From the IMG/VR virus record IMGVR_UViG_3300014839_000005, positions 1-64,000 of that record: DNA of 64,000 bases; one strand, written 5' to 3'. This DNA is from a virus. A program made the translations under genes and the position numbers. This document shows, in pieces, positions 455-45,587 of the stretch. The notes under the pieces are model-generated. The model saw only the letters and a program-made list of their open reading frames with translations, was not told the origin of the DNA and searched no databases. Position 1 is the stretch's first letter. Every line of letters begins with the position of its first letter.

Positions 455-1804
455 TTATTCGTAGTATATAACGCCATTTGCATTCTGTCTTATCTCTTCA
501 AAAGAATACTCTTTCATAATATTCCCATTAAGATAGACGGTTTGCATCAGGCTGTTATAACTTTCTCCGTTCACTGTTTTTACCTTGCGAAGCATCGACA
601 GCTCCAAATCGAGAATGCCTTTTTTGGATTTCTTGCCAGGGTCAGTTGCTGGATCTTTGTAGACCTCAATATCTTTTCCATCAACTTTAGCCCAGCTGCA
701 TTTGAAGGCAAACTTATTCGTATCCCTGTCAAAGCCTTTTTGAAGCAATCCACCACCCATTCCGAATGCGAGATTGGTAGCGCTGAAATGTATCTTCTCA
801 GCAGCTTCCAAAATTTTCTCCAGAATTTCATCATTGATACCGTCTCCTTGAATTACTCTTACCTTATTCAAGACTTTATATCCTTGATGATTCATTGTAT
901 AACCAAATCGATCACCTAGAATACAAAGAAGCCGGCAAACAACTTCAACAGGATCGCCAGAATCAGGTCTCACAACCAATGTCGCATTCATCTTCATCAC
1001 TTCTTCTTTGAGTTTATCTCCCCAAAGATTTGCTGCGGCATTGTAATTGATCATATTTCTATATGCATCAATCTCGTTGTCTTTCCCCCACATACTCATG
1101 GTGAAATGCTCTGCCACAGGGATGGAGAAACCGGCCATGTTGATGTTGTAATATTTATTGGCCATCCATATACCAGCAATAGTATCCGACCCCATAAAGT
1201 TAACCAAATGAGCTGCCCCACCAATCATTGCCTGTTCCTGACAAGAGACGCCCCTGCTGCCAAAATCATGGAGTTTGAATCCAATTTCGGCATTGGGATT
1301 ATCGGAAGTTTTATTAAGATATTTCTGGATAACACTTTTGACATGCCATCCGTATGTGGCTATAGTAATAGGATACCATAACCTGACCAAAAGTGTTTCA
1401 ATCCACGAAACAATCCCGAAAATATCAGGATCTTCAACGGAAGTCTGGACGGAAAATAGAATGTTATGGGTAGGAATAACGCATCCTTCAGGAACTGCCC
1501 TGATTTTTATAGGAAGCCTTCCTCCATAAGTATTGACAATTTTCATCCATCCATCGTAATTAAAAGGACAACCATGAAGTTGAGCAAATGCTTTTGCTTC
1601 TTCAACTTCAAATCTGGTTATCGGATTCGAAAGATATTTTTTCAGATAATACTGCAAACCGAAGAAAAGTGTTTCTCTCCAACGACCACCACGGCTTTCA
1701 AAATAAGAAAACATCGCAGTAGTCTTGGGAGGATATTGACACCAGTGGGAAAGTTTGTAGCTATCGGTGTCTAAAACCAGGCTAAGGACAAGGCGATTTT
1801 CCAT
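455..1804 (-). CDS. nadV: nicotinamide phosphoribosyltransferase (NAMPT/NadV), with an internal in-frame deletion
   Basis: motifs DTDSYKxSH, LHDFGxRG, SDTxAG, AEH, RPDSGDP, QGDGI; start re-set to MENRL at 1804 (GGAG SD). Confidence 0.9.
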   Translation of the reverse strand: MENRLVLSLVLDTDSYKLSHWCQYPPKTTAMFSYFESRGGRWRETLFFGLQYYLKKYLSNPITRFEVEEAKAFAQLHGCPFNYDGWMKIVNTYGGRLPIKIRAVPEGCVIPTHNILFSVQTSVEDPDIFGIVSWIETLLVRLWYPITIATYGWHVKSVIQKYLNKTSDNPNAEIGFKLHDFGSRGVSCQEQAMIGGAAHLVNFMGSDTIAGIWMANKYYNINMAGFSIPVAEHFTMSMWGKDNEIDAYRNMINYNAAANLWGDKLKEEVMKMNATLVVRPDSGDPVEVVCRLLCILGDRFGYTMNHQGYKVLNKVRVIQGDGINDEILEKILEAAEKIHFSATNLAFGMGGGLLQKGFDRDTNKFAFKCSWAKVDGKDIEVYKDPATDPGKKSKKGILDLELSMLRKVKTVNGESYNSLMQTVYLNGNIMKEYSFEEIRQNANGVIYYE

Positions 1805-1844
1805 GATAAAACTCCTTTGTTTCAATTCTCTCATTGAGAATCTA

Positions 1845-2861
1845 TTAAAGTTTATTGACAAAATACTGGATTATTGCGAGATGATCTTCAAAGAAATTTT
1901 CTTCTAACAATGCAAGATCATTAATAGGAACCCATTGAGCTGAAGCCGCATCATCGTCTCCTCTTACAACAGGAAGAGGTTTGTCACCATCAAGAACAAA
2001 TAGATAAGCATGAGTTATGCTACGACCACGCAAACTTCGTTTTGGATGGTCAAAAACATGCTGATCTTTGATACAACGCTCAAGAACTGGAAATGGAACA
2101 GCTATTTTTGTCTCTTCCCTTAGTTCCCTGATAGCGCAATGGCTGATAAACTCATCCTGATTCAAGAATCCACCAGGAAGTGCATATCTTCCTTTTCCAG
2201 GTTCGACTTTTCTTGTAACTAAAAGAATATGACCAGCCTGAACGACAACCGCATCAGTTGTTACAAATGTTGGAGGAAATGGGGCAACTCCCCATATTTT
2301 TTTATAAGATTTAATATAATGATACTCATCCTGTAGTCGTTTAAAAGTATCAGTTTTCTTAAAATCATCCAATTCATTTGCAACACGAACTGGGACCATA
2401 TGATCCCATTTATCCGTTTCTCCCAACAGTCTTTCGCGTATTAGCGTTCCATCAATTCTTTCTCCATACGCAAAAACTGCTGGTTGCGGCAAAAGTTTCC
2501 ATTGAGGAAAGAAATTCAGATAGTACGAAGAGTCATCTTTAAAATGACCTATCAAAGAAACATCACCCTCTCCTACCATACTTGCTACGGTATTTTGAAG
2601 TGACGTTATCCATGTAGTATCACTATAAAGAAAATCACGAAGAGGGCGAATAAGAAGTCTGCTGGTTTCTTGCCCCGATAAACTATTATTAATAAAATTT
2701 CGTCGGGACTCAAAATCCCACGGATTTTTTATTGTTGTTGGAGCCCTATAACTTCCAAGAACAACAATAACACGATCTGATTGTTCAAGTGCGGTTTGAA
2801 TGAGGGTTTTGTGGGCGTTATGAAATGGTTGACCGCGCAGTACAAATACTGTATACTTCAT
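1845..2861 (-). CDS. nadM: bifunctional NMN adenylyltransferase / Nudix hydrolase (NadM-Nudix, NatV-like)
   Basis: GxQPFHxAH nucleotidyltransferase motif; Nudix box GGFLNQDEFISHCAIRELREET. Confidence 0.92.
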   Translation of the reverse strand: MKYTVFVLRGQPFHNAHKTLIQTALEQSDRVIVVLGSYRAPTTIKNPWDFESRRNFINNSLSGQETSRLLIRPLRDFLYSDTTWITSLQNTVASMVGEGDVSLIGHFKDDSSYYLNFFPQWKLLPQPAVFAYGERIDGTLIRERLLGETDKWDHMVPVRVANELDDFKKTDTFKRLQDEYHYIKSYKKIWGVAPFPPTFVTTDAVVVQAGHILLVTRKVEPGKGRYALPGGFLNQDEFISHCAIRELREETKIAVPFPVLERCIKDQHVFDHPKRSLRGRSITHAYLFVLDGDKPLPVVRGDDDAASAQWVPINDLALLEENFFEDHLAIIQYFVNKL

Positions 2862-2940
2862 ACTAACTCCTTTTGTTTCGGCTCTCTCTTTGAAAGCCTA
2901 TGTGAATACTGTTACATTTTAAAGATACTACATGGTTCAG

Positions 2941-3075
2941 TGACTGCTCCCACGGCTAAAGCCGTGGGCTTTCTCGCTCACAAGATCGTAAATTGGCCTG
3001 AAAAATCGGTTAAAGGGCATTTGGCTCCTAATCAGGTTTAAAGCCCCGCGACTTTAGTCGCAGGGGATATTTACA
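2941..3075 (+). mobile_element. non-autonomous IS200/IS605 derivative (PATE-like), boundaries approximate
   Basis: left hairpin CCCACGGCTAAAGCCGTGGG; right end GTTTAAAGCCCCGCGACTTTAGTCGCAGGGG-ATATTTACA, resembling the right end of the tnpB element (GTTTAAAGCC...TTTACA). Confidence 0.7.
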
Positions 3076-3108
3076 TTTTATTCCTTCTAATTGTTATAAT
3101 TAAAAAAA

Positions 3109-3127
3109 AGGCTGCGCGATGCAGCCT
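3109..3127 (-). terminator. intrinsic terminator
   Basis: AGGCTGC/GCAGCCT stem flanked by A- and T-runs. Confidence 0.65.
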
Positions 3128-3131
3128 ATTT

Positions 3132-3539
3132 TTAATCAGTTTCAGGAATATCAGTCGCTTGAGGAGCAGGAGGTACTGGAGGAATATCACTTTCAGGAAC
3201 TACGTCAGGGTCTGCGTTACTCATTGACGTAAGGATTGCTGCTTCAACCTCTTCAAGATCGTCTGTCTTCTCAAGTTCATTACCATAGTCGTCATAGATA
3301 ATGAATTTAGTTGGCGTGATATCGAGATCGAAATCGATATTCTGAGCCATATCGCATATAAACTCAATTTTGCATCCTGAGTTTGAAGCGATAGCGGATT
3401 CAATATCAGGTTCAACTGATCCAGGTTCCGTATCGTCATCTTTTGGATATGTGCAAATAATACTTGTTACTTTTTCGAGATTAATTAATTGAGTATGATA
3501 TCCGTCAGCTTCTTTTGTGATTACTTTTATTGCTCTCAT
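3132..3539 (-). CDS. acidic hypothetical protein with Pro-rich tail
   Basis: 135-aa ORF, GGAG SD. Confidence 0.65.
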   Translation of the reverse strand: MRAIKVITKEADGYHTQLINLEKVTSIICTYPKDDDTEPGSVEPDIESAIASNSGCKIEFICDMAQNIDFDLDITPTKFIIYDDYGNELEKTDDLEEVEAAILTSMSNADPDVVPESDIPPVPPAPQATDIPETD

Positions 3540-6789: not shown

Positions 6790-8829
6790 CTATACAGGAA
6801 TTGCCCCAGCCAATACTTCATCAAAGTGTTGGTCTTCGGGCTTGTTTATAAATTCAGCCTTTTCAGGTTCTTTTTCAGTCGCTTTTTGTTCTTGCAACCT
6901 TATCATTTCCTCCGAAATTTCGGGCCAACAATTTACATATTTGCCGGCTGCATCATCGGTATTCGCTTGTTGCAAAAACAGAATTAACTGAAGTACTAGT
7001 TGATACAAATCCCTTTTCTTATATGCATTTGTCATACCAATTGCCAAAGTTCCATGACAAATGTGTCCATCCTGGAATACATGAGGAGCCTGCATATTTT
7101 GACCGCTGAAAGCTACTATCTGATGCTTCGTGTTCTTAATGAGGACAGTATTGTCGGTATTGTATGAATTGGAGTGCATTCCAATGGTAATATGGAACGT
7201 TCCAATATCATGCATCTTTTTACTTCTGTCATCACGGGCATACAAGTCATCAGTATATACATGAACAGTTTCGTCTTTGATGAAGACGGTCTTTACTTTT
7301 GGAATAGACTTTACCGCAGTGTATTCATCAAATGCTTTTTTCCGCATCTTTGTCTGCTGTTCAGACTCATTAAAAGATTCAATTTGTTCCATGTATTTTG
7401 AACACATTTTTCCAGATTCCATAGCCTTGGTCAAATAATCTTCATACGCAGCCTTTGCATCCTCATATGCCTTCTTCAACTGACGAATGACGGAACTGGA
7501 ACTGTCCATGACAAATTTAATATATTCATCACAGTTTCCCTTTTCCAGAATAGCCTGATAATTACTGTCGATTTTCAGCAATTCAGAATATGGAACTAAA
7601 CCGTCAAACCGTCTTGCTATTTCACTCATAGCTGTTTTTGCAAACTTCTTATTATCATATGCGTTAAACATCAATATGATAATATTCCGTTCTTGTAATG
7701 CAAATACGACATTAGTCGCAGTATCCTTATAAATTTTATCGTATTTTGCATATGGTGAGTTTCTTTGTTCGGCGAATATTTTATCTATCGCTTCTTTTTT
7801 GGCGTCTGAACTCATGGATCCATCTTTAATAGCCTGAATCTCTTTGTTTACATCATTACCTTTAATAATGGCAAGATTATGAATTTCAGTTCCAAAAGCA
7901 GTGGACTTAATCTCACTGATAGTGTTGGTAATATCTGTATAACCACTTTGCGCACCATTAGTAGCGATAAATAAAAAAGATTGATTTACAATAGACTTAG
8001 AACTCAACGCTTTCTTTGCCTCCATAAGCCATCTTCTGTCGTCGCCTATAATAAGATGACATTTTACTTGATTGGCAAAATCAAATAGAAAACTATCATC
8101 AAATACTTCTGGAGCAGCGCGTAGTTTACATACCTTGAATTTGCTGTCATTTTTACTTTCGAAGCGAAATCCTATAGTATGTAACTGTTGCAATCGCTCA
8201 TCAACAGTTTCAGATACTTTATCCAGCGCTTCTGCTAAAGTGGTTTTATGCCTTTTCACTGTACGCCTTCCTCCTTCATCTTCCACATTTTCCATAACCT
8301 CTTCAGCCATCGTTTCTGCCAATCCTCTCACAGTTCCTCGTAATCTTTCCTCTGCAGCTCGACGTTCTGGCGCAGGACCTATACCTCCAGTTGGTTGTGC
8401 CATATCCTCAGGCCTTATAACACGAACCATTGGTTCAGGTTCTTCAGGCATTGGTTCTTCAGCATAGGCAGTTCTGATTTCTCTTTCAAAGTTAGCCACA
8501 TCAAACCTTTGAGTGCCAACCCCTGCCTCTTGAATAGCTTCATACGTTGTTGTCTCTTTTACTGAACCATTAGTTAGACTATTAAGAATGTCATCGTTGT
8601 AATAATATTTATGAATGATCACTCTCATCCCTACAATGTCGGCTTCCTTATCAAGAGGCATTAAACGGTCAGAATCTCCTGCAAGTTCCCATACCCTTTG
8701 AAGAGCGCCCAGGACTCTGATATAATAGTTCTTTGTTATCATAGCGGCTACTCCGCCGCCATTTAGCACAAATGGCTCAAACGGAATTCCGAGAACCAGC
8801 GCCAACCTTTCCTCGATAAATCCGAACAT
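6790..8829 (-). CDS. large coiled-coil protein with C-terminal E2 (UBC)-like domain
   Basis: APHVFQDGHICHG matches the E2 active-site pattern; helical coiled-coil segment precedes it. Confidence 0.62.
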   Translation of the reverse strand: MFGFIEERLALVLGIPFEPFVLNGGGVAAMITKNYYIRVLGALQRVWELAGDSDRLMPLDKEADIVGMRVIIHKYYYNDDILNSLTNGSVKETTTYEAIQEAGVGTQRFDVANFEREIRTAYAEEPMPEEPEPMVRVIRPEDMAQPTGGIGPAPERRAAEERLRGTVRGLAETMAEEVMENVEDEGGRRTVKRHKTTLAEALDKVSETVDERLQQLHTIGFRFESKNDSKFKVCKLRAAPEVFDDSFLFDFANQVKCHLIIGDDRRWLMEAKKALSSKSIVNQSFLFIATNGAQSGYTDITNTISEIKSTAFGTEIHNLAIIKGNDVNKEIQAIKDGSMSSDAKKEAIDKIFAEQRNSPYAKYDKIYKDTATNVVFALQERNIIILMFNAYDNKKFAKTAMSEIARRFDGLVPYSELLKIDSNYQAILEKGNCDEYIKFVMDSSSSVIRQLKKAYEDAKAAYEDYLTKAMESGKMCSKYMEQIESFNESEQQTKMRKKAFDEYTAVKSIPKVKTVFIKDETVHVYTDDLYARDDRSKKMHDIGTFHITIGMHSNSYNTDNTVLIKNTKHQIVAFSGQNMQAPHVFQDGHICHGTLAIGMTNAYKKRDLYQLVLQLILFLQQANTDDAAGKYVNCWPEISEEMIRLQEQKATEKEPEKAEFINKPEDQHFDEVLAGAIPV

Positions 8830-8895
8830 AATTCCTCCTAATTAAAAAAAATTAAGTTTATAATTAATTAACTAATTAATATTACCTACATTATA

Positions 8896-8923
8896 GTTAT
8901 TACAGAAATGGAATTGAAATAAC
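8896..8923 (-). promoter_or_regulatory. GTTAT-N18-ATAAC copy with adjacent TATAAT, heading the ubiquitin-like operon
   Basis: minus strand reads GTTAT-N18-ATAAC-TATAAT, 67 nt upstream of the 8829 start. Confidence 0.75.
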
Positions 8924-16080: not shown

Positions 16081-16129
16081 ACAGAGTCCTTTGTAAAAAA
16101 AAAGATTGTAATATAACTAAAAAATGATT

Positions 16130-16840
16130 TACGAGTAAGCGTTGCCTCCCCAAGGCGAGTAGAGCCCCTCAGCGAGACGAGCCTGGGGAAGGCAAAAGCG
16201 TGAAGTTGCGTTTATCTAGAATTAACAGATAGTGCTACACATATCCGCTTCCTTTTGGAATATAATCTTATATTACAATTCATTAATGCAACTAAGATCA
16301 CTCATGAACGATAAGTGATCGTCTGGCGTTGAACCACCTAGGGCTTCCCTAGGTGGGGCCAGACGTGAGCGAAGAGTTCATCATACACACGTTACTCTGT
16401 GGTCAGTATGGTACATACTGACATAAAAATCTTGCATTAAATCTTTTTTGTCTGGATTAAATCGATTGTTTGCTGATATTGATGAATAGGTTGCTTATTG
16501 CTGTTATTACATAAAAGTAGAATAGATAACAATAGTACAGTCCAAAATGCCATAAATACAATACAAAAGTCATTCATTACAATATTCCATTCTAATAAAT
16601 ACCTGGCTATAGTATTTTGTCTATAGCCAGGTTCTCCAAAATTAAATTCTAAATTTTAACCAATTAAATCAATCTTTTCTAATAAACATCTAATTTTAGC
16701 ATCATATAATAATTTTTTGCATAACTAAGACGAATGTAAGGCCCGTACAGGCAAGGCCTGGTTCCACTGGATTAATTCCCAGTCGCGTCTGATACAGACG
16801 GTTTAGGAAACCTTATGCAAGACGATTCGAACCCGAATAA
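16130..16840. repeat. non-coding cluster of inverted repeats
   Basis: e.g. CCACCTAGGG-CTT-CCCTAGGTGG, GTCAGTATG-GTA-CATACTGAC, CCTGGCTATAG-N8-CTATAGCCAGG, CGTCTG-ATA-CAGACG. Confidence 0.7.
16503..16530 (-). promoter_or_regulatory. GTTAT-N18-ATAAC copy (weak -10)
   Basis: exact spacing, inside the non-coding hairpin region. Confidence 0.5.
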
Positions 16841-16850
16841 TACAAATAAT

Positions 16851-17052
16851 TTAACACCAGCCAGGGTCTTCACCCTTAGCTTCACTCTCTTCGATTTTAA
16901 TACCCTCTCTTTCTCTGACGTGTGGCATTATAAATTGGCCACAGTCACATTTTAAAAATCCCATCATACCACAATCAAAATCATTAAATTGTGTTTCAGT
17001 AAGTTTAATTTTATCACCACATTTGCATGTGATAAAGTAACTCCTTGTGCAT
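16851..17052 (-). pseudogene. frameshifted small Zn-ribbon gene
   Basis: strong AGGAGG+ATG at 17052, but the CKC...CDC reading frame is +1 relative to that ATG. Confidence 0.4.
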
Positions 17053-17071
17053 AATTCCTCCTTATACAGGG

Positions 17072-17311
17072 TTAAGTATTAAGACAGTCGTGAAAATCAC
17101 TTACCATAATTCTATAAAGACGATTAGGTTGAAGATGAGCATTAACTGGAAACATTTTCCTTCTTGGAGTTGCAACAAAAACTATTGGCGCTTCACAATA
17201 TTTACATTTAGTTACTTTATGACTCATAACATCAATTGGTTTACTTGATGCTCCGCTAACGGGAACAACATTTATAAAAGCGCCGCCATTTAAAGGTTTG
17301 TAATCATCCAT
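17072..17311 (-). CDS. small Zn-binding phage protein
   Basis: CKYC...PVN...HDC. Confidence 0.6.
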   Translation of the reverse strand: MDDYKPLNGGAFINVVPVSGASSKPIDVMSHKVTKCKYCEAPIVFVATPRRKMFPVNAHLQPNRLYRIMVSDFHDCLNT

Positions 17312-17318
17312 AAGTTCC

Positions 17319-17594
17319 TCAACTGATTTTCATTGCAATATTGAATTTTTTTTTAATTAACACATACATTTCTTGTGCGGCTCTTGATTCAGGAGTATCT
17401 ACTTCACCATTTTTCCAATAACCTAAAGCATTCATACAATCTACTGGATCAGGAAATTGTATATGTATTTCTCCTTTACGAATCATTGTTTTTATATAAC
17501 TATTTTTAGTTATATAACTATAGAATAAAAGTAATAAAAATGTTACAATACCTGTTACTGTTGCAAATAACAAAACTAATAATATTATATCCAT
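17319..17594 (-). CDS. single-pass membrane hypothetical protein
   Basis: N-terminal hydrophobic helix. Confidence 0.55.
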   Translation of the reverse strand: MDIILLVLLFATVTGIVTFLLLLFYSYITKNSYIKTMIRKGEIHIQFPDPVDCMNALGYWKNGEVDTPESRAAQEMYVLIKKKFNIAMKIS

Positions 17595-21051: not shown

Positions 21052-21095
21052 CGAAACCTCCGGTTGTTGATAGTTAAATAAAGCTTCTCAATATA

Positions 21096-21123
21096 GTTAT
21101 TACAGAAATTGCTTTGTTATAAC
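21096..21123 (-). promoter_or_regulatory. GTTAT-N18-ATAAC copy with TATATT
   Basis: exact spacing, upstream of the 21051 start. Confidence 0.7.
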
Positions 21124-26257: not shown

Positions 26258-27349
26258 TTATTTTAGAACATAATCAATAATCATCTTGAGATTTTCCCCG
26301 AATCCAGAAATCTGTATTTCATTGAATAGATAATCTTGAACTGCGACAAATGAAGTGACTGCCGGTGATACAGTATTGTCATCATAAATACGCAAGTATC
26401 CCTTCCCTCTCCATGGAGGAATATGATCTCTGGTATATTTATCATGTATTGTTCGATAATATAATCTCCTCGATACAAGCGCATCAGGAGCACCTGGAAC
26501 TGGGGGACAAAACGTTAATTCAATAAAATCCTTATGCCATTCAGGGTCATCGCATCTTACATTCAGCTTATGCCTTGCAAGACAGGACGCAAGATACTTT
26601 GCTAATTTAAATCGCACAGTATCTGCGTCGCAATGATAAAGCTTAGTGTAACGTGCGTAGTAATATTCTCTTTGTTCAACTGGGATGACGCCTTTCCATC
26701 CCAATTCATTTAATTCCTGAAATGAAGGAAGAGAAATGTCGATTCCATTCTTATCTGAATCTTTAAGATAAGCTAAAATTTTTTGCATAATAATATCAGA
26801 ACAAGTATGAAAATCGACATTGGAACATAAATCACTTTCCCTGATTGGTTTAATAAAGTTGGTAAGACCGAGAATCGTAATCAGGCTTTCAAAGTCAACA
26901 ACGTACTTTTTACTGGCATCAACTGATCCAGGTTCATCTTCAAAAATATACCATCCACTCAAATCCTCAATCCTGATATTAATCGATATTCCTGGAGCGT
27001 AAACTTGAGATACTCGTTGTTGTAAACAATAAAGCATTTTTAATCCCATAATCTCCGCTATATCGATAGACTTTGTATTATCAGGTTTTTTACTTCCCCA
27101 TGGAATAAGAATGGCGATAGGTTTATTATTCTCTATCGCTCTTCTTAATACAGAACGAATAGCGACCAGGCTTTCTGGGTTTGGAGCCGGTCCAAATCTG
27201 ACATGATGTGTTCCAACTAATTCGCTAACCACTCCTTCTAATTTTTGATTGGAAGTAGTGGCGGCAGGGACAGGAAATGTCAGCATTAAAGCATCTTTAA
27301 TCAAACCGGCATAAACATCGTCATTTGGAATTGAAATATTAAAGGGCAT
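26258..27349 (-). CDS. PvcA/Dit1-like (isonitrile synthase family) protein
   Basis: IE..KPI..LIP...K..N...DIAE...L..L..L.QRV..VYAPG..I.I..D and C-terminal PPWRG align by eye with PvcA as recalled (PDMAE..L..L..LCQRI..FYAPGAKI.V.SD; TPWHG). Confidence 0.62.
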   Translation of the reverse strand: MPFNISIPNDDVYAGLIKDALMLTFPVPAATTSNQKLEGVVSELVGTHHVRFGPAPNPESLVAIRSVLRRAIENNKPIAILIPWGSKKPDNTKSIDIAEIMGLKMLYCLQQRVSQVYAPGISINIRIEDLSGWYIFEDEPGSVDASKKYVVDFESLITILGLTNFIKPIRESDLCSNVDFHTCSDIIMQKILAYLKDSDKNGIDISLPSFQELNELGWKGVIPVEQREYYYARYTKLYHCDADTVRFKLAKYLASCLARHKLNVRCDDPEWHKDFIELTFCPPVPGAPDALVSRRLYYRTIHDKYTRDHIPPWRGKGYLRIYDDNTVSPAVTSFVAVQDYLFNEIQISGFGENLKMIIDYVLK

Positions 27350-27377
27350 TGTTTCAATCCTTTAGTTAAAGTTTGTT

Positions 27378-27602
27378 TTATTTTTTTGTCCAATCTGCAT
27401 CACCGTCTTTTTTCCAGTGAGTACAATTGGCTATCGCAACATTTAAAGCTTTACCATGCTTAGCAACTTTCATGTGTACGAGTTCTTCAATGGAATTGAT
27501 ATAATATTTATCTATTCCATCATATACATATCGCACACCATCAACTAAAAAACCAGCCTTTCCTTCGTGTGAAGTAAAACACAGTCTGATATGTTTATTC
27601 AT
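27378..27602 (-). CDS. hypothetical protein
   Basis: 74-aa ORF tiling the operon. Confidence 0.5.
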   Translation of the reverse strand: MNKHIRLCFTSHEGKAGFLVDGVRYVYDGIDKYYINSIEELVHMKVAKHGKALNVAIANCTHWKKDGDADWTKK

Positions 27603-28183
27603 ACCAGTTCCCCTCTATGATATTTATCAATTGCATCTTTTAACAATTGAATTTCTTTTACCCAAACACCGGAAGGTATTCTTTGAGGATTTGATCCCCT
27701 GATATTAAGGTCTGAAAATTGCAGGAGACGGTTAAACTTATTATCAATTTGATTGTCGAATTTAAATAAAAACTTTTGAACCATACTTTTCGTCCAGAGA
27801 CCTCCTACTGCTGGACGCATGTGGTTTTCGATAATAAACATAGTCTCATACATTTGTGAATAACTGATTTTTTTATTATCCGCCATTTCAGTTACAACTG
27901 GACTTGCTAAAGTTTTACTAATATCCGCATGACCAGGAAAGATAACAAGACCATTTTTCATTTTTCTCGTTAATGCTTTCCCAACATCATGTAGTGCCGC
28001 ACATATCAGCATCACTTTATCATGTGGACACATAATTCGTATCTGATCTATGACCGCTAAAATATGGTTATATACCGTTGAATAGCTTTGCCAACGTGAT
28101 GGAAGGTTATCAATCGATTTTAATTTTACCACCATTGGTAATTCAAGTAAATATTTTTCTAATTCCAACATTTTATCCTCCAT
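27599..28183 (-). CDS. HD-domain phosphohydrolase
   Basis: VYNH...ALHDVGK...GHA...ENHM. Confidence 0.8.
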   Translation of the reverse strand: MEDKMLELEKYLLELPMVVKLKSIDNLPSRWQSYSTVYNHILAVIDQIRIMCPHDKVMLICAALHDVGKALTRKMKNGLVIFPGHADISKTLASPVVTEMADNKKISYSQMYETMFIIENHMRPAVGGLWTKSMVQKFLFKFDNQIDNKFNRLLQFSDLNIRGSNPQRIPSGVWVKEIQLLKDAIDKYHRGELV

Positions 28184-28219
28184 GATTTGAAATAAATGAA
28201 CGTTATTGTTCCTATAATT

Positions 28220-28247
28220 GTTATTCCAATAAAAAAGAATAAATAAC
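28220..28247 (-). promoter_or_regulatory. GTTAT-N18-ATAAC copy
   Basis: exact spacing, upstream of the HD gene. Confidence 0.65.
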
Positions 28248-28274
28248 TAAAAAAAATATCAAGTAATAGCTAAG

Positions 28275-28302
28275 AAAAAGGGTATCGCATTATCCCCTTT
28301 TT
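28275..28302 (-). terminator. terminator immediately 3' of the ncRNA candidate
   Basis: minus strand AAAAAGGGG-ATAATGCGAT-ACCCTTTTT. Confidence 0.65.
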
Positions 28303-28303
28303 C

Positions 28304-28926
28304 GGTTCCAGTGGACATCCTCCTTTTAAGAGAATGTAAGCGAACCGGCGTATTAAACCGTTCACCAGATTGCGCTATAGCTGGTATCCTTTTGGGACTA
28401 GTCGCTATGTACATACCACGTTTAACCGTGGAAACGCTATATTATCGTTCTACACTCATTATGGAAAACTAGCTATATCCCCATAAATCATGTGCAAGAC
28501 AGTGACCTCTCTGGAAGATCTCCATCCAACCCCTTTCGGGACACTTCGCAAATTCTTTTGGAACTCGACGACAGAACGCCATCCGACAATATAGAGTTAG
28601 CTTTGTGACATTACTGCCACGTCCAAAGATACAGTTATTCTATATTCATATATCTTGCGATATACCAGAATATCCCTGTCTCCCGTACTAAGATAAGCTA
28701 CAATCCTTAGTTTCTACTATCTTGAGTTTTGGTTTAGCAACCAGCCTCTTAGATAATAGATGCGTTTTCACGCTGACAGATTTCCTCCCTGCTAAAGGAG
28801 ACTTCCTGTCTGTGCAATTCGAGTGTCAGGCCCCTCGAACCGAAGGTTCTTCACTCACACCTTTCCATATACATCTTACGATGCCTCACAGCCGGTAATG
28901 CATATGAGTTTTAATTCTCTGGAACG
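28304..28926 (-). ncRNA. large (~620 nt) structured ncRNA, family unassigned
   Basis: no ORF in the track; 5' GUUCCAG pairs with 3' CUGGAAC; five GNRA-capped hairpins and one C(UUCG)G, all on the minus strand; own promoter and terminator. Confidence 0.72.
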
Positions 28927-28950
28927 TAGAATAACATTGCTGTCATTATT

Positions 28951-28978
28951 GTTATTACTGATTTATTATTATAATAAC
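28951..28978 (-). promoter_or_regulatory. GTTAT-N18-ATAAC copy driving the ncRNA candidate
   Basis: exact spacing plus AATAAT -10, about 25 nt upstream of the closing stem. Confidence 0.7.
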
Positions 28979-29022
28979 AAAAAAAAGAGGCTTTTGTAAA
29001 AGCCCCTTTTTTATTATAAATC

Positions 29023-29517
29023 TTAAGCGCAAGATACAATTTCGTTAAAAATCAAATCCTTTTGCGCTAAGATTTCTTTCTTCGTGGCCTCTAAAGCGTT
29101 AATTGCTTGACGGTGTTCTTCAGCTTCAGCTTCAGTTTCTTCAATTTGCTTTTTAATAATTGCTGAAGCTTGGTTGACAAGGACCTTCGCTTCGTTAAGA
29201 AGTCTGATAGGGTCTCTTTTGCGAATCTTCACGGAAAGATCGCCATGAAATAATCGATCCTTTCCCCTGCCTCCTTGTTTTGCAACAATCACATCTGGAA
29301 TAAGTTTCTTTAAATCCAGATCAACGGTGAGAAGCGCATTGTACACGGCAGGAGAAACTATATCGTTGGTTTTATTCTCCAAAAGAGAAATTTGCGCACG
29401 TGACATACCAGTAGCGTCAGCAAGTTTTCCCTGATTCATACCTCTTTCTTCACGAAATTCACGAATTGCTGTTGAAACTCGTGAACGAACAAGTTCTGCA
29501 ATCTTTGGCATATTCAT
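29023..29517 (-). CDS. XRE-family HTH regulator with C-terminal coiled coil
   Basis: IREFREERGMNQGKLADATGMSRAQISLLEN. Confidence 0.82.
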   Translation of the reverse strand: MNMPKIAELVRSRVSTAIREFREERGMNQGKLADATGMSRAQISLLENKTNDIVSPAVYNALLTVDLDLKKLIPDVIVAKQGGRGKDRLFHGDLSVKIRKRDPIRLLNEAKVLVNQASAIIKKQIEETEAEAEEHRQAINALEATKKEILAQKDLIFNEIVSCA

Positions 29518-29562
29518 CTCCTTTTTTTTGATGTAATGCTTTATTACATTACATATTTAATA

Positions 29563-29841
29563 TTAATCCTGGTAATTAAGATACATATTGATGGTACTTC
29601 GAAATCCGATAAGAACATCCCTATTTCTGATCATATTTCCATCAATAGTAACTTTTTCAAGTTTTGACCATTCATGAAAAGTTTCCAGTACCTGGCCGAT
29701 TTTTTGAGTGACAATAGCGGCATTTTTCCTTTCAATATCACTCATAATCATCTCAGGATTTGCTGCAATAGTTACTACTAGAGGCTCAACAACTGCTACC
29801 ATCATCATTAAAGCTTGACTCATTGTTTCTGAATTATTCAT
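29563..29841 (-). CDS. hypothetical protein
   Basis: 92-aa ORF downstream of a promoter copy. Confidence 0.55.
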   Translation of the reverse strand: MNNSETMSQALMMMVAVVEPLVVTIAANPEMIMSDIERKNAAIVTQKIGQVLETFHEWSKLEKVTIDGNMIRNRDVLIGFRSTINMYLNYQD

Positions 29842-29893
29842 AAAAATTCCTTTGTTAATATTGTATAATGCGTTATTGCATCACACTATTATA

Positions 29894-29921
29894 GTTATAC
29901 CATATAATGGTTGATAATAAC
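29894..29921 (-). promoter_or_regulatory. GTTAT-N18-ATAAC copy with TATAAT
   Basis: exact spacing. Confidence 0.7.
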
Positions 29922-30159
29922 TAAAAAAAAGGGGGCCCTAAAGCCCCCAAATAATAGCGTCAGCTATTATTCTTACGCAGCAATTTTTTCATGCTTATGG
30001 TCATGACTTTTGCTTTTCTTCTGGGCCGCCATCACCTCGTCGTGTTGACGGGCTTTTCGTTCTTCGTCAGTTTCCGGCTGATACCGATGGGATCCGTCGC
30101 CACACATAGACAACCTCCTGAAAAAAGTGTTAATAGAATAGATTAAACTGTCCATTATA

Positions 30160-30187
30160 GTTATTCCAAATAATAGAAATTAATAAC
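30160..30187 (-). promoter_or_regulatory. GTTAT-N18-ATAAC copy with TATAAT
   Basis: exact spacing; implies the 29973-30155 ORF starts at the later Met (MCGDG, GGAGG SD). Confidence 0.7.
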
Positions 30188-30234
30188 ACTTTTTTATATT
30201 TAACCAAAGGTTCATTTTGAACCTTTGGTTTTTT

Positions 30235-30444
30235 TTAAATACAAGTAGGTTCTTTTTCCTTCGGTTCAACGTAATAACGCAGTATTGCTTGAAGTAATAT
30301 AAATCCGCCAAGAAATACAATCCCGATAATGCCCACAATTAAGGCTATTTTATTTTTAGCCATAAACCTCATTAAAGGATCAAAGTCATCCTTAATGTTA
30401 TTCAATTGTTTAATTAACATTTTTTTAATTGATTTAATATTCAT
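30235..30444 (-). CDS. small membrane protein
   Basis: one hydrophobic helix IALIVGIIGIVFLGGFILL. Confidence 0.55.
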   Translation of the reverse strand: MNIKSIKKMLIKQLNNIKDDFDPLMRFMAKNKIALIVGIIGIVFLGGFILLQAILRYYVEPKEKEPTCI

Positions 30445-30789
30445 AATTTTCTCCAGATTTAAGTGACTTACAACGATTTTGACTCAAAAAAAATTTCTCC
30501 AAATTTTAAACGATTAAGTTTACATAATATTTTATTAAACGCTTAAACTCAATAAGACCCCTTTCATTGATGAAAAATGTAATTTACAAAATGATAGTAA
30601 AAATTTAACGTTAAGTAGAATTCAGTCACTATATTAAAAACCTATTCTTTTTTCTATCTTAATACAAAATATTCTTTTTTTAACAGAAAATTGAATAGTG
30701 ATTGGAGAAAAATATTCTCATTTGTCAAATTTTTAACATGGGTATAACTTAAGTTATGATATGGGTTTAGAAACTTGGCTCGATTTTTG

Positions 30790-30865
30790 CTTAATTTATA
30801 TTATATATATATATAATAATATAATAATAGTATAGATAGATATATATATATGATATATAACATTA
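30790..30865. repeat. almost pure A/T tract with (AT)n runs
   Basis: TTATATATATATATAATAATATAATAATAGTATAGATAGATATATATATA. Confidence 0.7.
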
Positions 30866-31211
30866 AGAACGTCCAACTGGTCTACATTCTCTCTTTTTTT
30901 TTGTTTGTGAATGTAGTTGATTTATGCTTAGTTTTTGCCCTCTTTTTATTCAGTGTGTGTGCGGGAGAGAGAGAGACATTATGTTGGAGGTGTCGCCGAG
31001 TTGGACGTTACCTAAAGCTTTAATCTTGAATTGTAAGTCATTAAAAAAAACCATACGTTATTGTATGGTTATGAAAATTATTAATTCAATAAATAGTGTT
31101 ATTGCTATTTTTGAAGATTGACTTGTTTTAGAAAAAAATAATCGCCATCATGATTTGGAAAATCATGATAACCACCTCCTCTCAATCAAAGGAGATAAAC
31201 TGTACAATATA

Positions 31212-31239
31212 GTTATTCCTTAAAAACTGAGGAAATAAC
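31212..31239 (-). promoter_or_regulatory. GTTAT-N18-ATAAC copy with TATATT
   Basis: exact spacing. Confidence 0.65.
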
Positions 31240-37259: not shown

Positions 37260-37502
37260 AACTACCTCTTAATCAGCCATTAACTGTTCGGGTTGGATTT
37301 CTGTATTTTCATCACAATCAAAACATTTGCGCAATTCCTTCATCGGGGCTCTACAATGTTCAGCTGCATCAGATGCCACTTCTGGTTCTGCGCCATCCTT
37401 GATATACATATTATAAAGAACTACTCTTTTTTGAAGTATATTTAAATCTCGCATTTTCATATATTCCTCCAAGTTAAGTTAATAACAAATGATTCCATTA
37501 TT

Positions 37503-37530
37503 GTTATTACCTAATACCTAAAAAAATAAC
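37503..37530 (-). promoter_or_regulatory. GTTAT-N18-ATAAC copy with AATAAT
   Basis: exact spacing; abuts terminator ATAACTGCCA/TGGCAGTTAT. Confidence 0.7.
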
Positions 37531-40078: not shown

Positions 40079-40138
40079 TTTAGCTCCTTTGTTTAAGTAA
40101 ACAAATAATGGAGTCAGAACTATTCTGACTCCATTATT

Positions 40139-40166
40139 GTTATTCCGTTAAATTAGGCAAAATAAC
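40139..40166 (-). promoter_or_regulatory. GTTAT-N18-ATAAC copy with AATAAT
   Basis: exact spacing. Confidence 0.7.
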
Positions 40167-45520: not shown

Positions 45521-45559
45521 GGGCAGGACTCCTTAATTCAGTAAAACCATACCATTATA

Positions 45560-45587
45560 GTTATTCCGAAATTTAGTGAATAATAAC
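45560..45587 (-). promoter_or_regulatory. GTTAT-N18-ATAAC copy with TATAAT at the strand switch
   Basis: exact spacing; first promoter of the minus-strand block. Confidence 0.75.

Follow-up and report, generated by a model that had tools for sequence, protein, structure and literature searches.

Three described RNAs, ROOL, GOLLD and OLE, are the closest counterparts of the RNA reported here. ROOL (RF03087) has a mean length of 581 nt (PMC5737381), reaches a reported abundance equal to that of 16S rRNA (PMC5737381, PMC12286853) and was seen by cryo-EM to form a homo-oligomeric nanocage (PMC12286853). ROOL and GOLLD often lie beside tRNA genes or tRNA islands, in phages or prophages (PMC5737381, PMC12286853). 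OLE (RF01071), an ornate and exceptionally highly expressed RNA of ~600 nt, is encoded in the chromosomes of extremophilic anaerobes and has a protein partner, OAP (PMC3413148).

The RNA under study is encoded on the minus strand at positions 28304-28926 of the window, by which we mean the whole stretch of DNA that was analysed, positions 1-64,000 of an IMG/VR virus record of 128.5 kb (estimated completeness of the record: 71%). The source is an uncultured peat-soil phage, and the stretch was found in public peat, permafrost and freshwater metagenome runs. Like ROOL, the peat-phage RNA is large, rich in helices and phage-borne, and appears to have a stand-alone gene rather than to be a leader; unlike ROOL, it has no match to the ROOL model and its nearest tRNA gene is ~85 kb away, tRNA adjacency being frequent, not obligatory, in ROOL. 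With GOLLD (RF01998; PMC12286853) it shares the nature of a large, helix-rich RNA of a phage or prophage, but neither a match to the model (which includes the universally conserved 3′ region of GOLLD) nor the tRNA context. The likeness to OLE lies in the size of ~600 nt, the ornate structure and the high expression; the differences are the phage setting, the lack of a model match and the lack of an oap-type partner gene nearby.

We hold, with a probability of about 0.85, that 28304-28926 truly encodes a non-coding RNA that is transcribed independently, folds strand-specifically, is abundant and lies outside all known families. Its own transcription signals, the absence of an ORF, the strand-specific fold and its presence as RNA place it in the general kind of large structured phage ncRNAs. 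Within this known kind, the best reading, which rests on one sequence, is a new family that so far has a single member.

All genes surrounding the RNA element are encoded on the minus strand, and those neighbouring it specify an HTH protein, an HD protein and a weakly PvcA-like protein. The GC content of the RNA body is 0.42, compared with 0.31-0.37 in the flanks. Code 11 leaves the flanking genes intact and yields 73 codons for the longest stop-to-stop frame over 28250-28980; the same scan gives 94 codons under code 4 (TGA=W) and 109 codons when TAG is read as Q, the latter at the cost of five read-throughs. The absence of an ORF at 28304-28926, which an earlier note on this DNA had pointed out, thus holds under three genetic codes. 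None of the 10 small ORFs of the RNA region was found among 15 billion called proteins by an exact look-up, in which the spelling of the start codon may defeat a match.

The RNA forms a self-contained unit (window 28275-28978), the parts of which follow one another on the minus strand with no gaps: the terminator of the HTH gene, the promoter motif, the ORF-free body, the U-run hairpin, a second promoter motif and the HD operon (Table 1). The earlier note had placed a promoter at 28951-28978. This proposal has gained in strength, since 28945-28978 matches a 34-nt motif, GTTATT-N14-GKWATAAC-WATWAT, which occurs in 11 copies in the window (≤2 mismatches allowed), all of them on the minus strand, versus 0.03 copies expected. 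The other copies are found at 360-393, 8890-8923, 21090-21123, 28214-28247, 29888-29921, 30154-30187, 31206-31239, 37497-37530, 40133-40166 and 45554-45587. Those copies that were checked stand 31-61 nt ahead of the start codons at 8829, 21051, 28183, 29841 and 40078. Outside the window, further copies were found in the remaining half of the genome and in five related-phage loci (four distinct phages), in the latter on the primase strand. The motif closes with a TATAAT-like hexamer, and its two outer hexamers are inverted repeats of each other; we therefore interpret it as a putative promoter with a built-in operator, possibly one for a dimeric regulator. Judged by the position of the motif, transcription would start at ~28937-28940, and the primary transcript probably extends from ~28938 to 28275.

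As a separate feature, the AT-rich stretch of 1.4 kb at window 29841-31239 (GC down to 0.22, no long ORF) carries three copies of the promoter motif as well as AT palindromes at 30791-30860, and is a possible control region or origin.

The 3′ end of the unit is marked by a hairpin (28302-28275) with an 8-bp stem composed of A/U pairs and GGG, a 12-nt loop and a following U-run. Stem, loop and U-run of the terminator proposed in the earlier note are therefore present; its weak points are that a consensus scan did not list it and that one RNA contig spans the hairpin. The two terminators enclosing the promoter and the body (28272-28302 and 28981-29011) are 71% identical to each other and constitute repeat family D4. 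The independent transcription that had been suggested for the RNA is upheld by the motif upstream, the U-run hairpin downstream and the second motif copy, which would serve the next operon. Since the HD operon owns an exact copy of the motif past the terminator, the RNA does not look like the leader of a dependent operon; it appears to be a unit of its own, and the next operon appears to be independent of the RNA's promoter.

Table 1. Features of the RNA locus and RNA-run contigs mapped to it (window coordinates)
Feature	Position	Strand	Remarks
HTH gene, 164 aa	29517-29023	minus	Pfam HTH_3; upstream neighbour of the RNA
Terminator of the upstream HTH gene	29012-28981	minus	14-pair hairpin, then T-run; upstream edge of the RNA unit
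Putative promoter/operator motif	28945-28978	minus	exact match to GTTATT-N14-GKWATAAC-WATWAT
RNA body	28304-28926	minus	ORF-free, closed by the end helix
Closing helix, 7 bp	28925-28919 / 28311-28305	minus	GUUCCAG/CUGGAAC; pairing probability 0.98
GUAA-capped hairpin	28871-28884	minus	in the MFE fold
5′ domain	28711-28866	minus	four stem-loops parted by single A residues; helix probabilities 0.93-0.99
Stem with symmetric 3x3 purine internal loop (AAG/AAA), UAGC loop	28775-28810	minus	probability 0.93-0.97
GAAA-capped hairpin	28762-28773	minus	in the MFE fold
GCAA-capped 7-bp hairpin	28648-28665	minus	in the MFE fold
GUAA-capped hairpin	28605-28620	minus	in the MFE fold
3′ multi-branch domain	28433-28598	minus	closed by an 11-bp helix, probability 0.99
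Second GAAA hairpin	28531-28540	minus	inside the 3′ multi-branch domain; in the MFE fold
Hairpin with 10-nt loop containing the palindrome UAGCUA	28459-28486	minus	inside the 3′ domain
Terminator-like hairpin and U-run	28275-28302	minus	3′ end of the RNA unit
Second copy of the promoter motif	28214-28247	minus	exact; 31 nt ahead of the HD gene start codon 28183
HD / 74-aa / 363-aa operon	start codon 28183	minus	downstream neighbour of the RNA
X10 contig	29086-29416		HTH gene; word depth 6.7
X10 contig	28797-28895		wholly within the RNA; word depth 6,922
X10 contig	28050-28635		3′ half of the RNA, running into the HD gene; word depth 271
X10 contig	27590-27949		HD gene; word depth 19.3

The 676-nt stretch reaches a predicted folding energy of -223.6 kcal/mol, with a z value of -7.4 on the minus strand versus -2.8 on the plus strand. 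For 28300-28930 (minus) the MFE is -211 kcal/mol and z is -6.4 relative to dinucleotide shuffles, the best value among 11 windows of the same length, the ten same-strand controls ranging from +0.3 to -4.8. At the 300-nt scale, with GC regressed out, the RNA region is merely 1-2 sd below the trend, and the strand asymmetry of its fold ranks third and fifth among 425 windows. Since the controls reach -4.8, another stretch of the window (16081-17071) reaches -8.7, yet on both strands, and the 300-nt signal amounts to 1-2 sd, the fold energy is supportive, not decisive. The stretch of ~1 kb at 16081-17071 has a fold z of about -8 on either strand, contains tiny ORFs only, several GC-rich hairpins and no repeats, and includes the tRNA T-arm-like GGGTTCGAATC, although ARAGORN calls no tRNA there.

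A stronger signal than the energy is given by the number of GNRA-capped hairpins together with the closed helices of high probability. On the minus strand the RNA has six GNRA-capped hairpins of ≥4 bp, five of which are in the MFE fold, and on the plus strand it has none; the background in the genome is 0.60 per 631 nt (minus), no other 631-nt plus window has more than three, and shuffled sequences have 0.66 on average, with 0/2000 reaching six. This bears out the strand specificity of the tetraloops to which the earlier note had drawn attention. Most of the predicted helices have a pairing probability of >0.9. Several individual elements had likewise been read correctly from the letters: the ends do pair in the prediction (probability 0.98), the two GUAA, two GAAA and one GCAA hairpins all recur in the minimum-energy fold where they had been placed, and the purine-rich symmetric internal loop at about 28775-28810 is present, predicted at 0.93-0.97. 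By contrast, the supposed C(UUCG)G hairpin (28837-28849) had to be given up as non-canonical, for a C.U mismatch comes after the closing pair and the fold favours another pairing with a 3-nt loop.

UAUGG and CUAAG flank the 5′ domain on its two sides, a pair with a 10-of-11 likeness to the classic GAAA-tetraloop receptor, and two GAAA loops are present in the RNA. This receptor-like motif and the palindromic loop are leads only, as either might occur by chance frequently enough. The only two natural variants, at 28647 and 28666, affect a 5-nt bulge and a G.U end pair just outside the GCAA hairpin, and are uninformative on the fold.

Scanning of the whole window with Rfam at gathering score detected no family in the RNA. 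Neither did any of 4,227 models match the RNA body at E≤10 in scans of 951, 346 and 371 bases, the inputs of ~350 bases having been chosen so that the filters were at their laxest. What was left at E≤10 was rejected: noise of terminator type at 28965-29084, and a signal of 21 bits that resembled a CRISPR repeat and lay on the wrong strand. The earlier note could not match the RNA to any class, and this proved right in the Rfam check for ROOL, GOLLD, OLE, RNase P, tmRNA and group I/II introns, all of which are unmatched; nor does any Rfam cis-regulatory family match the RNA at gathering score or at E≤10. ARAGORN calls no tmRNA at the RNA and no tRNA in the 64-kb window. As a positive control, the same tools found the genuine tmRNA of the phage (137 bits) and two tRNAs ~85-94 kb away. 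The tRNA-Pro, tRNA-Gln and tmRNA genes are located at ~114-123 kb of the record, which puts the nearest tRNA ~85 kb from the RNA. The tmRNA (L081:18522-18929, record 122522-122929, minus; Rfam RF00023, 137 bits, E 2e-54) has a tag of 29 residues according to ARAGORN, and a copy of the promoter motif is found ~300 nt upstream of it. The two tRNA genes are at L081:10203-10276 and 17295-17367.

Homologues of the RNA were sought both directly and through the neighbouring proteins. BLAST with the RNA in distant mode gave no match in GenBank phages and PLSDB plasmids. A covariance model built from the 5′ domain (R1, self-score 195 bits) matches only its own site and nothing in the other sequences scanned, and no second copy of the RNA was found in its own 128.5-kb record either by BLAST or by R1; ten whole IMG/VR records yielded nothing with the same two methods. 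Neither exact words taken from the RNA nor a pattern anchored on its loops had a match in IMG/VR or in 185,579 species genomes, and BLAST against 401 Bacteroidales genomes returned chance 23-25-mers only, the top one within a coding gene.

Used as single IMG/VR queries, HD-194, HTH-164 and the primase gave no close relatives. The 363-aa neighbour protein is widespread, with 74 relatives. Fifty loci of these 363-aa relatives, taken from IMG/VR and JGI metagenomes, have nothing else in common with the phage; the HD gene and any comparable leader are absent from them, and searches with nhmmer and blastn detected no homologue of the RNA there. Alignment of the primase led to true syntenic relatives (33-45% primase identity), which keep p87 upstream and p226, p255 and p338 downstream. 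Because these relatives are without the block from p101 through p92, the RNA included, the RNA is located in a hypervariable accessory region. Closer relatives are known by protein, with 84% and 75% identity for the primase and 85% for the 363-aa protein. The sequence itself is nearly invariant across runs from many peat studies.

Three related phages have a different conserved non-coding element (L063:16290-16650, L072:16241-16603 and L064:16301-16647) directly after the p338 homologue. It consists of a promoter-like block, a closed fold and a terminator-like hairpin, keeps 29 pairs through double changes, matches nothing in Rfam and is not represented in the window.

A probe of 851 bases was found in 20 runs from 17 studies, five of the runs being metatranscriptomes. 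Four runs were compared over 27300-30300, using contigs that are unstranded, do not reveal true ends and give depth as one mean per contig. The check for a transcript turned out in favour of the RNA: contigs from RNA runs lie inside the predicted RNA in two studies, are far deeper than the flanks in one of them, and cover 28312-28895 of the RNA body. In X10, an RNA run of 73 Mb, the word depth of RNA contigs is 271 to ~6,900, versus 2-20 in the flanking genes, values which as contig means indicate a rough level (Table 1). Summed over the 5′ domain (28711-28866) the depth in X10 is 7,700-43,000, with the peak of 43,000 at 28714-28814, and the depth of the 5′ part exceeds that of the 3′ part by a factor of 15 to >100. 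X16, from another study, has contigs at 28312-28454 and 28548-28697, and besides these only two 31-letter pieces, with 3 mismatches each, at 28227-28257 just beyond the terminator. Contigs cannot prove absence where coverage is lacking (28916-29016 in X10; the 5′ half and the flanking genes in X16), and no transcript ends were drawn from them. The coverage in X10 and X16 fits a very abundant, stable RNA and is hard to reconcile with carry-over of DNA.

In the deepest X10 contig the phage sequence breaks off at 28895, within the loop of the first hairpin, and is followed by 22 foreign letters that are absent from the phage and from IMG/VR; their single occurrence in the 185,579 species genomes is in a Bacteroidales MAG from a fen, in which the covariance model R1 has no match. 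Splicing and a link to the host were considered for this junction and set aside in favour of a library chimera, as ~7 of 9 letters are shared at the junction. We read the contig as a chimera of two abundant RNAs that arose in library preparation; it hints at a frequent RNA end near 28895. Given the excess of depth in the 5′ part and the stop of the deepest contig at 28895, the most abundant species may be the 5′ part, possibly without the end-pairing helix, rather than the full closed molecule.

The 22 letters are part of a structured stretch of ~500 nt (L061:45-560, plus strand; MAG Bacteroidales fen_984, PLLO01000011.1) that ends in a terminator, precedes a UbiD gene and is unmatched in Rfam. 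A homologue at G136:C130:59691-60205 is 72% identical to it, keeps 11 pairs via double changes and differs by indels that are not multiples of three. This stretch is probably an undescribed Bacteroidales RNA.

The depth profile raises the question of whether the long transcript serves chiefly as the precursor of a shorter, stable working RNA that comprises its 5′ half (~28636-28895) or a sub-piece, e.g. 28714-28795, with the 3′ half and the end helix being dispensable. The rise of depth in X10 from 271 (28050-28635) through 1,100-3,500 (28647-28666) to ~6,900 (28797-28895) would agree with this, as would a contig that ends in adapter letters at 28795 and the absence of the 5′ strand of the end helix from the deepest contig, which ends at 28895. 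In X16, however, a run of a different study, it is the 3′ half (28312-28697) that is covered and the 5′ half that is not, and the contig depths are single means that break at the variant sites 28647 and 28666; moreover, the 3′ domain is folded as well as the 5′ domain and there is no terminator-like site near 28620. We regard a mere precursor as unlikely. A far smaller chance is left to a long cis-acting leader, attenuator- or riboswitch-like, that would control read-through into the HD / 74-aa / 363-aa operon. The RNA is indeed directly upstream of that operon and on the same strand, its end helix adjoins the terminator hairpin, and the X10 contig 28050-28635 extends beyond the terminator and into the HD gene. 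Against this, the exact motif copy owned by the operon (28214-28247) intervenes between the terminator and the start codon, both the HD gene and a comparable leader are missing from the 50 loci of 363-aa relatives, and no Rfam cis-regulatory family matches; known riboswitches, besides, are several times shorter than 620 nt.

It is just as improbable that the RNA is a very diverged ROOL, GOLLD, OLE or raiA member beyond the reach of the Rfam models. Its size is like that of ROOL (mean 581 nt; PMC5737381) and so are the phage setting and the high abundance (PMC12286853), but 0/4,227 models respond at E≤10, even with the inputs of ~350 bases, and there is no tRNA within 85 kb. The orphan status of the RNA, in a hypervariable accessory region that is missing from syntenic relatives, and the fact that other windows of the genome fold well too, could be taken to mean that it is transcribed but functionless, a decayed gene remnant or spacer with a fortuitous structure that merely shields it from decay. 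We think this quite improbable in view of the dedicated putative promoter and terminator, the ten-fold enrichment of GNRA loops on one strand only, the closing helix and compact multi-hairpin domains predicted at high pairing probability, and the near-invariant sequence in runs from many peat studies. That the locus works at the DNA level, for instance as an origin of replication or a packaging site, is hardly credible: it is non-coding and ~1 kb from the AT-rich, repeat-bearing stretch 29841-31239, but apart from its hairpins neither direct nor inverted DNA repeats occur within it, its GC content is above and not below that of the flanks, its fold signals are strand-specific, and it is in strong excess over the flanks in RNA libraries.

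The putative promoter and terminator of its own, the separate promoter of the next operon and the likeness to ROOL and GOLLD make a folded RNA that acts in trans the most economical explanation, one to which, arguing by analogy, we would give slightly better than even odds. We propose that this phage gene is read from the minus strand, from the motif used before many minus-strand genes, and that the resulting transcript of ~620-660 nt, which has no reading frame, would end at the U-run hairpin before the promoter of the next operon and fold into a closed structure of several domains with many GNRA-capped hairpins. It would be neither a message nor a cis-acting leader; the folded particle might instead be a scaffold, a decoy or a self-assembling structure for a partner from the phage or the host, a type of role that has also been put forward for ROOL and GOLLD. 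The 5′ domain (~180-300 nt) would accumulate above the rest of the RNA. More tentatively, the RNA may be the founder of a new family that reaches very high levels during infection in peat and whose particle, possibly self-assembling, holds or diverts a factor independently of any tRNA context. Self-assembly, which we consider rather doubtful in itself, could proceed through the GNRA loops, the receptor-like UAUGG/CUAAG pair around the 5′ domain and the palindromic UAGCUA loop.

Large, intricate RNAs that are free of protein are rare, and ROOL, GOLLD and OLE were recently found to form unexpected RNA-only assemblies. The peat-phage RNA is another, unrelated candidate, with clean gene boundaries, a length that can be transcribed in vitro and apparently very high natural levels, and its distance from tRNA genes could help to show which traits of such RNAs are general. 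For the phage itself, it would mean that a virus which already has an RNA polymerase of its own as well as a tmRNA and tRNAs devotes resources to yet another RNA gene.
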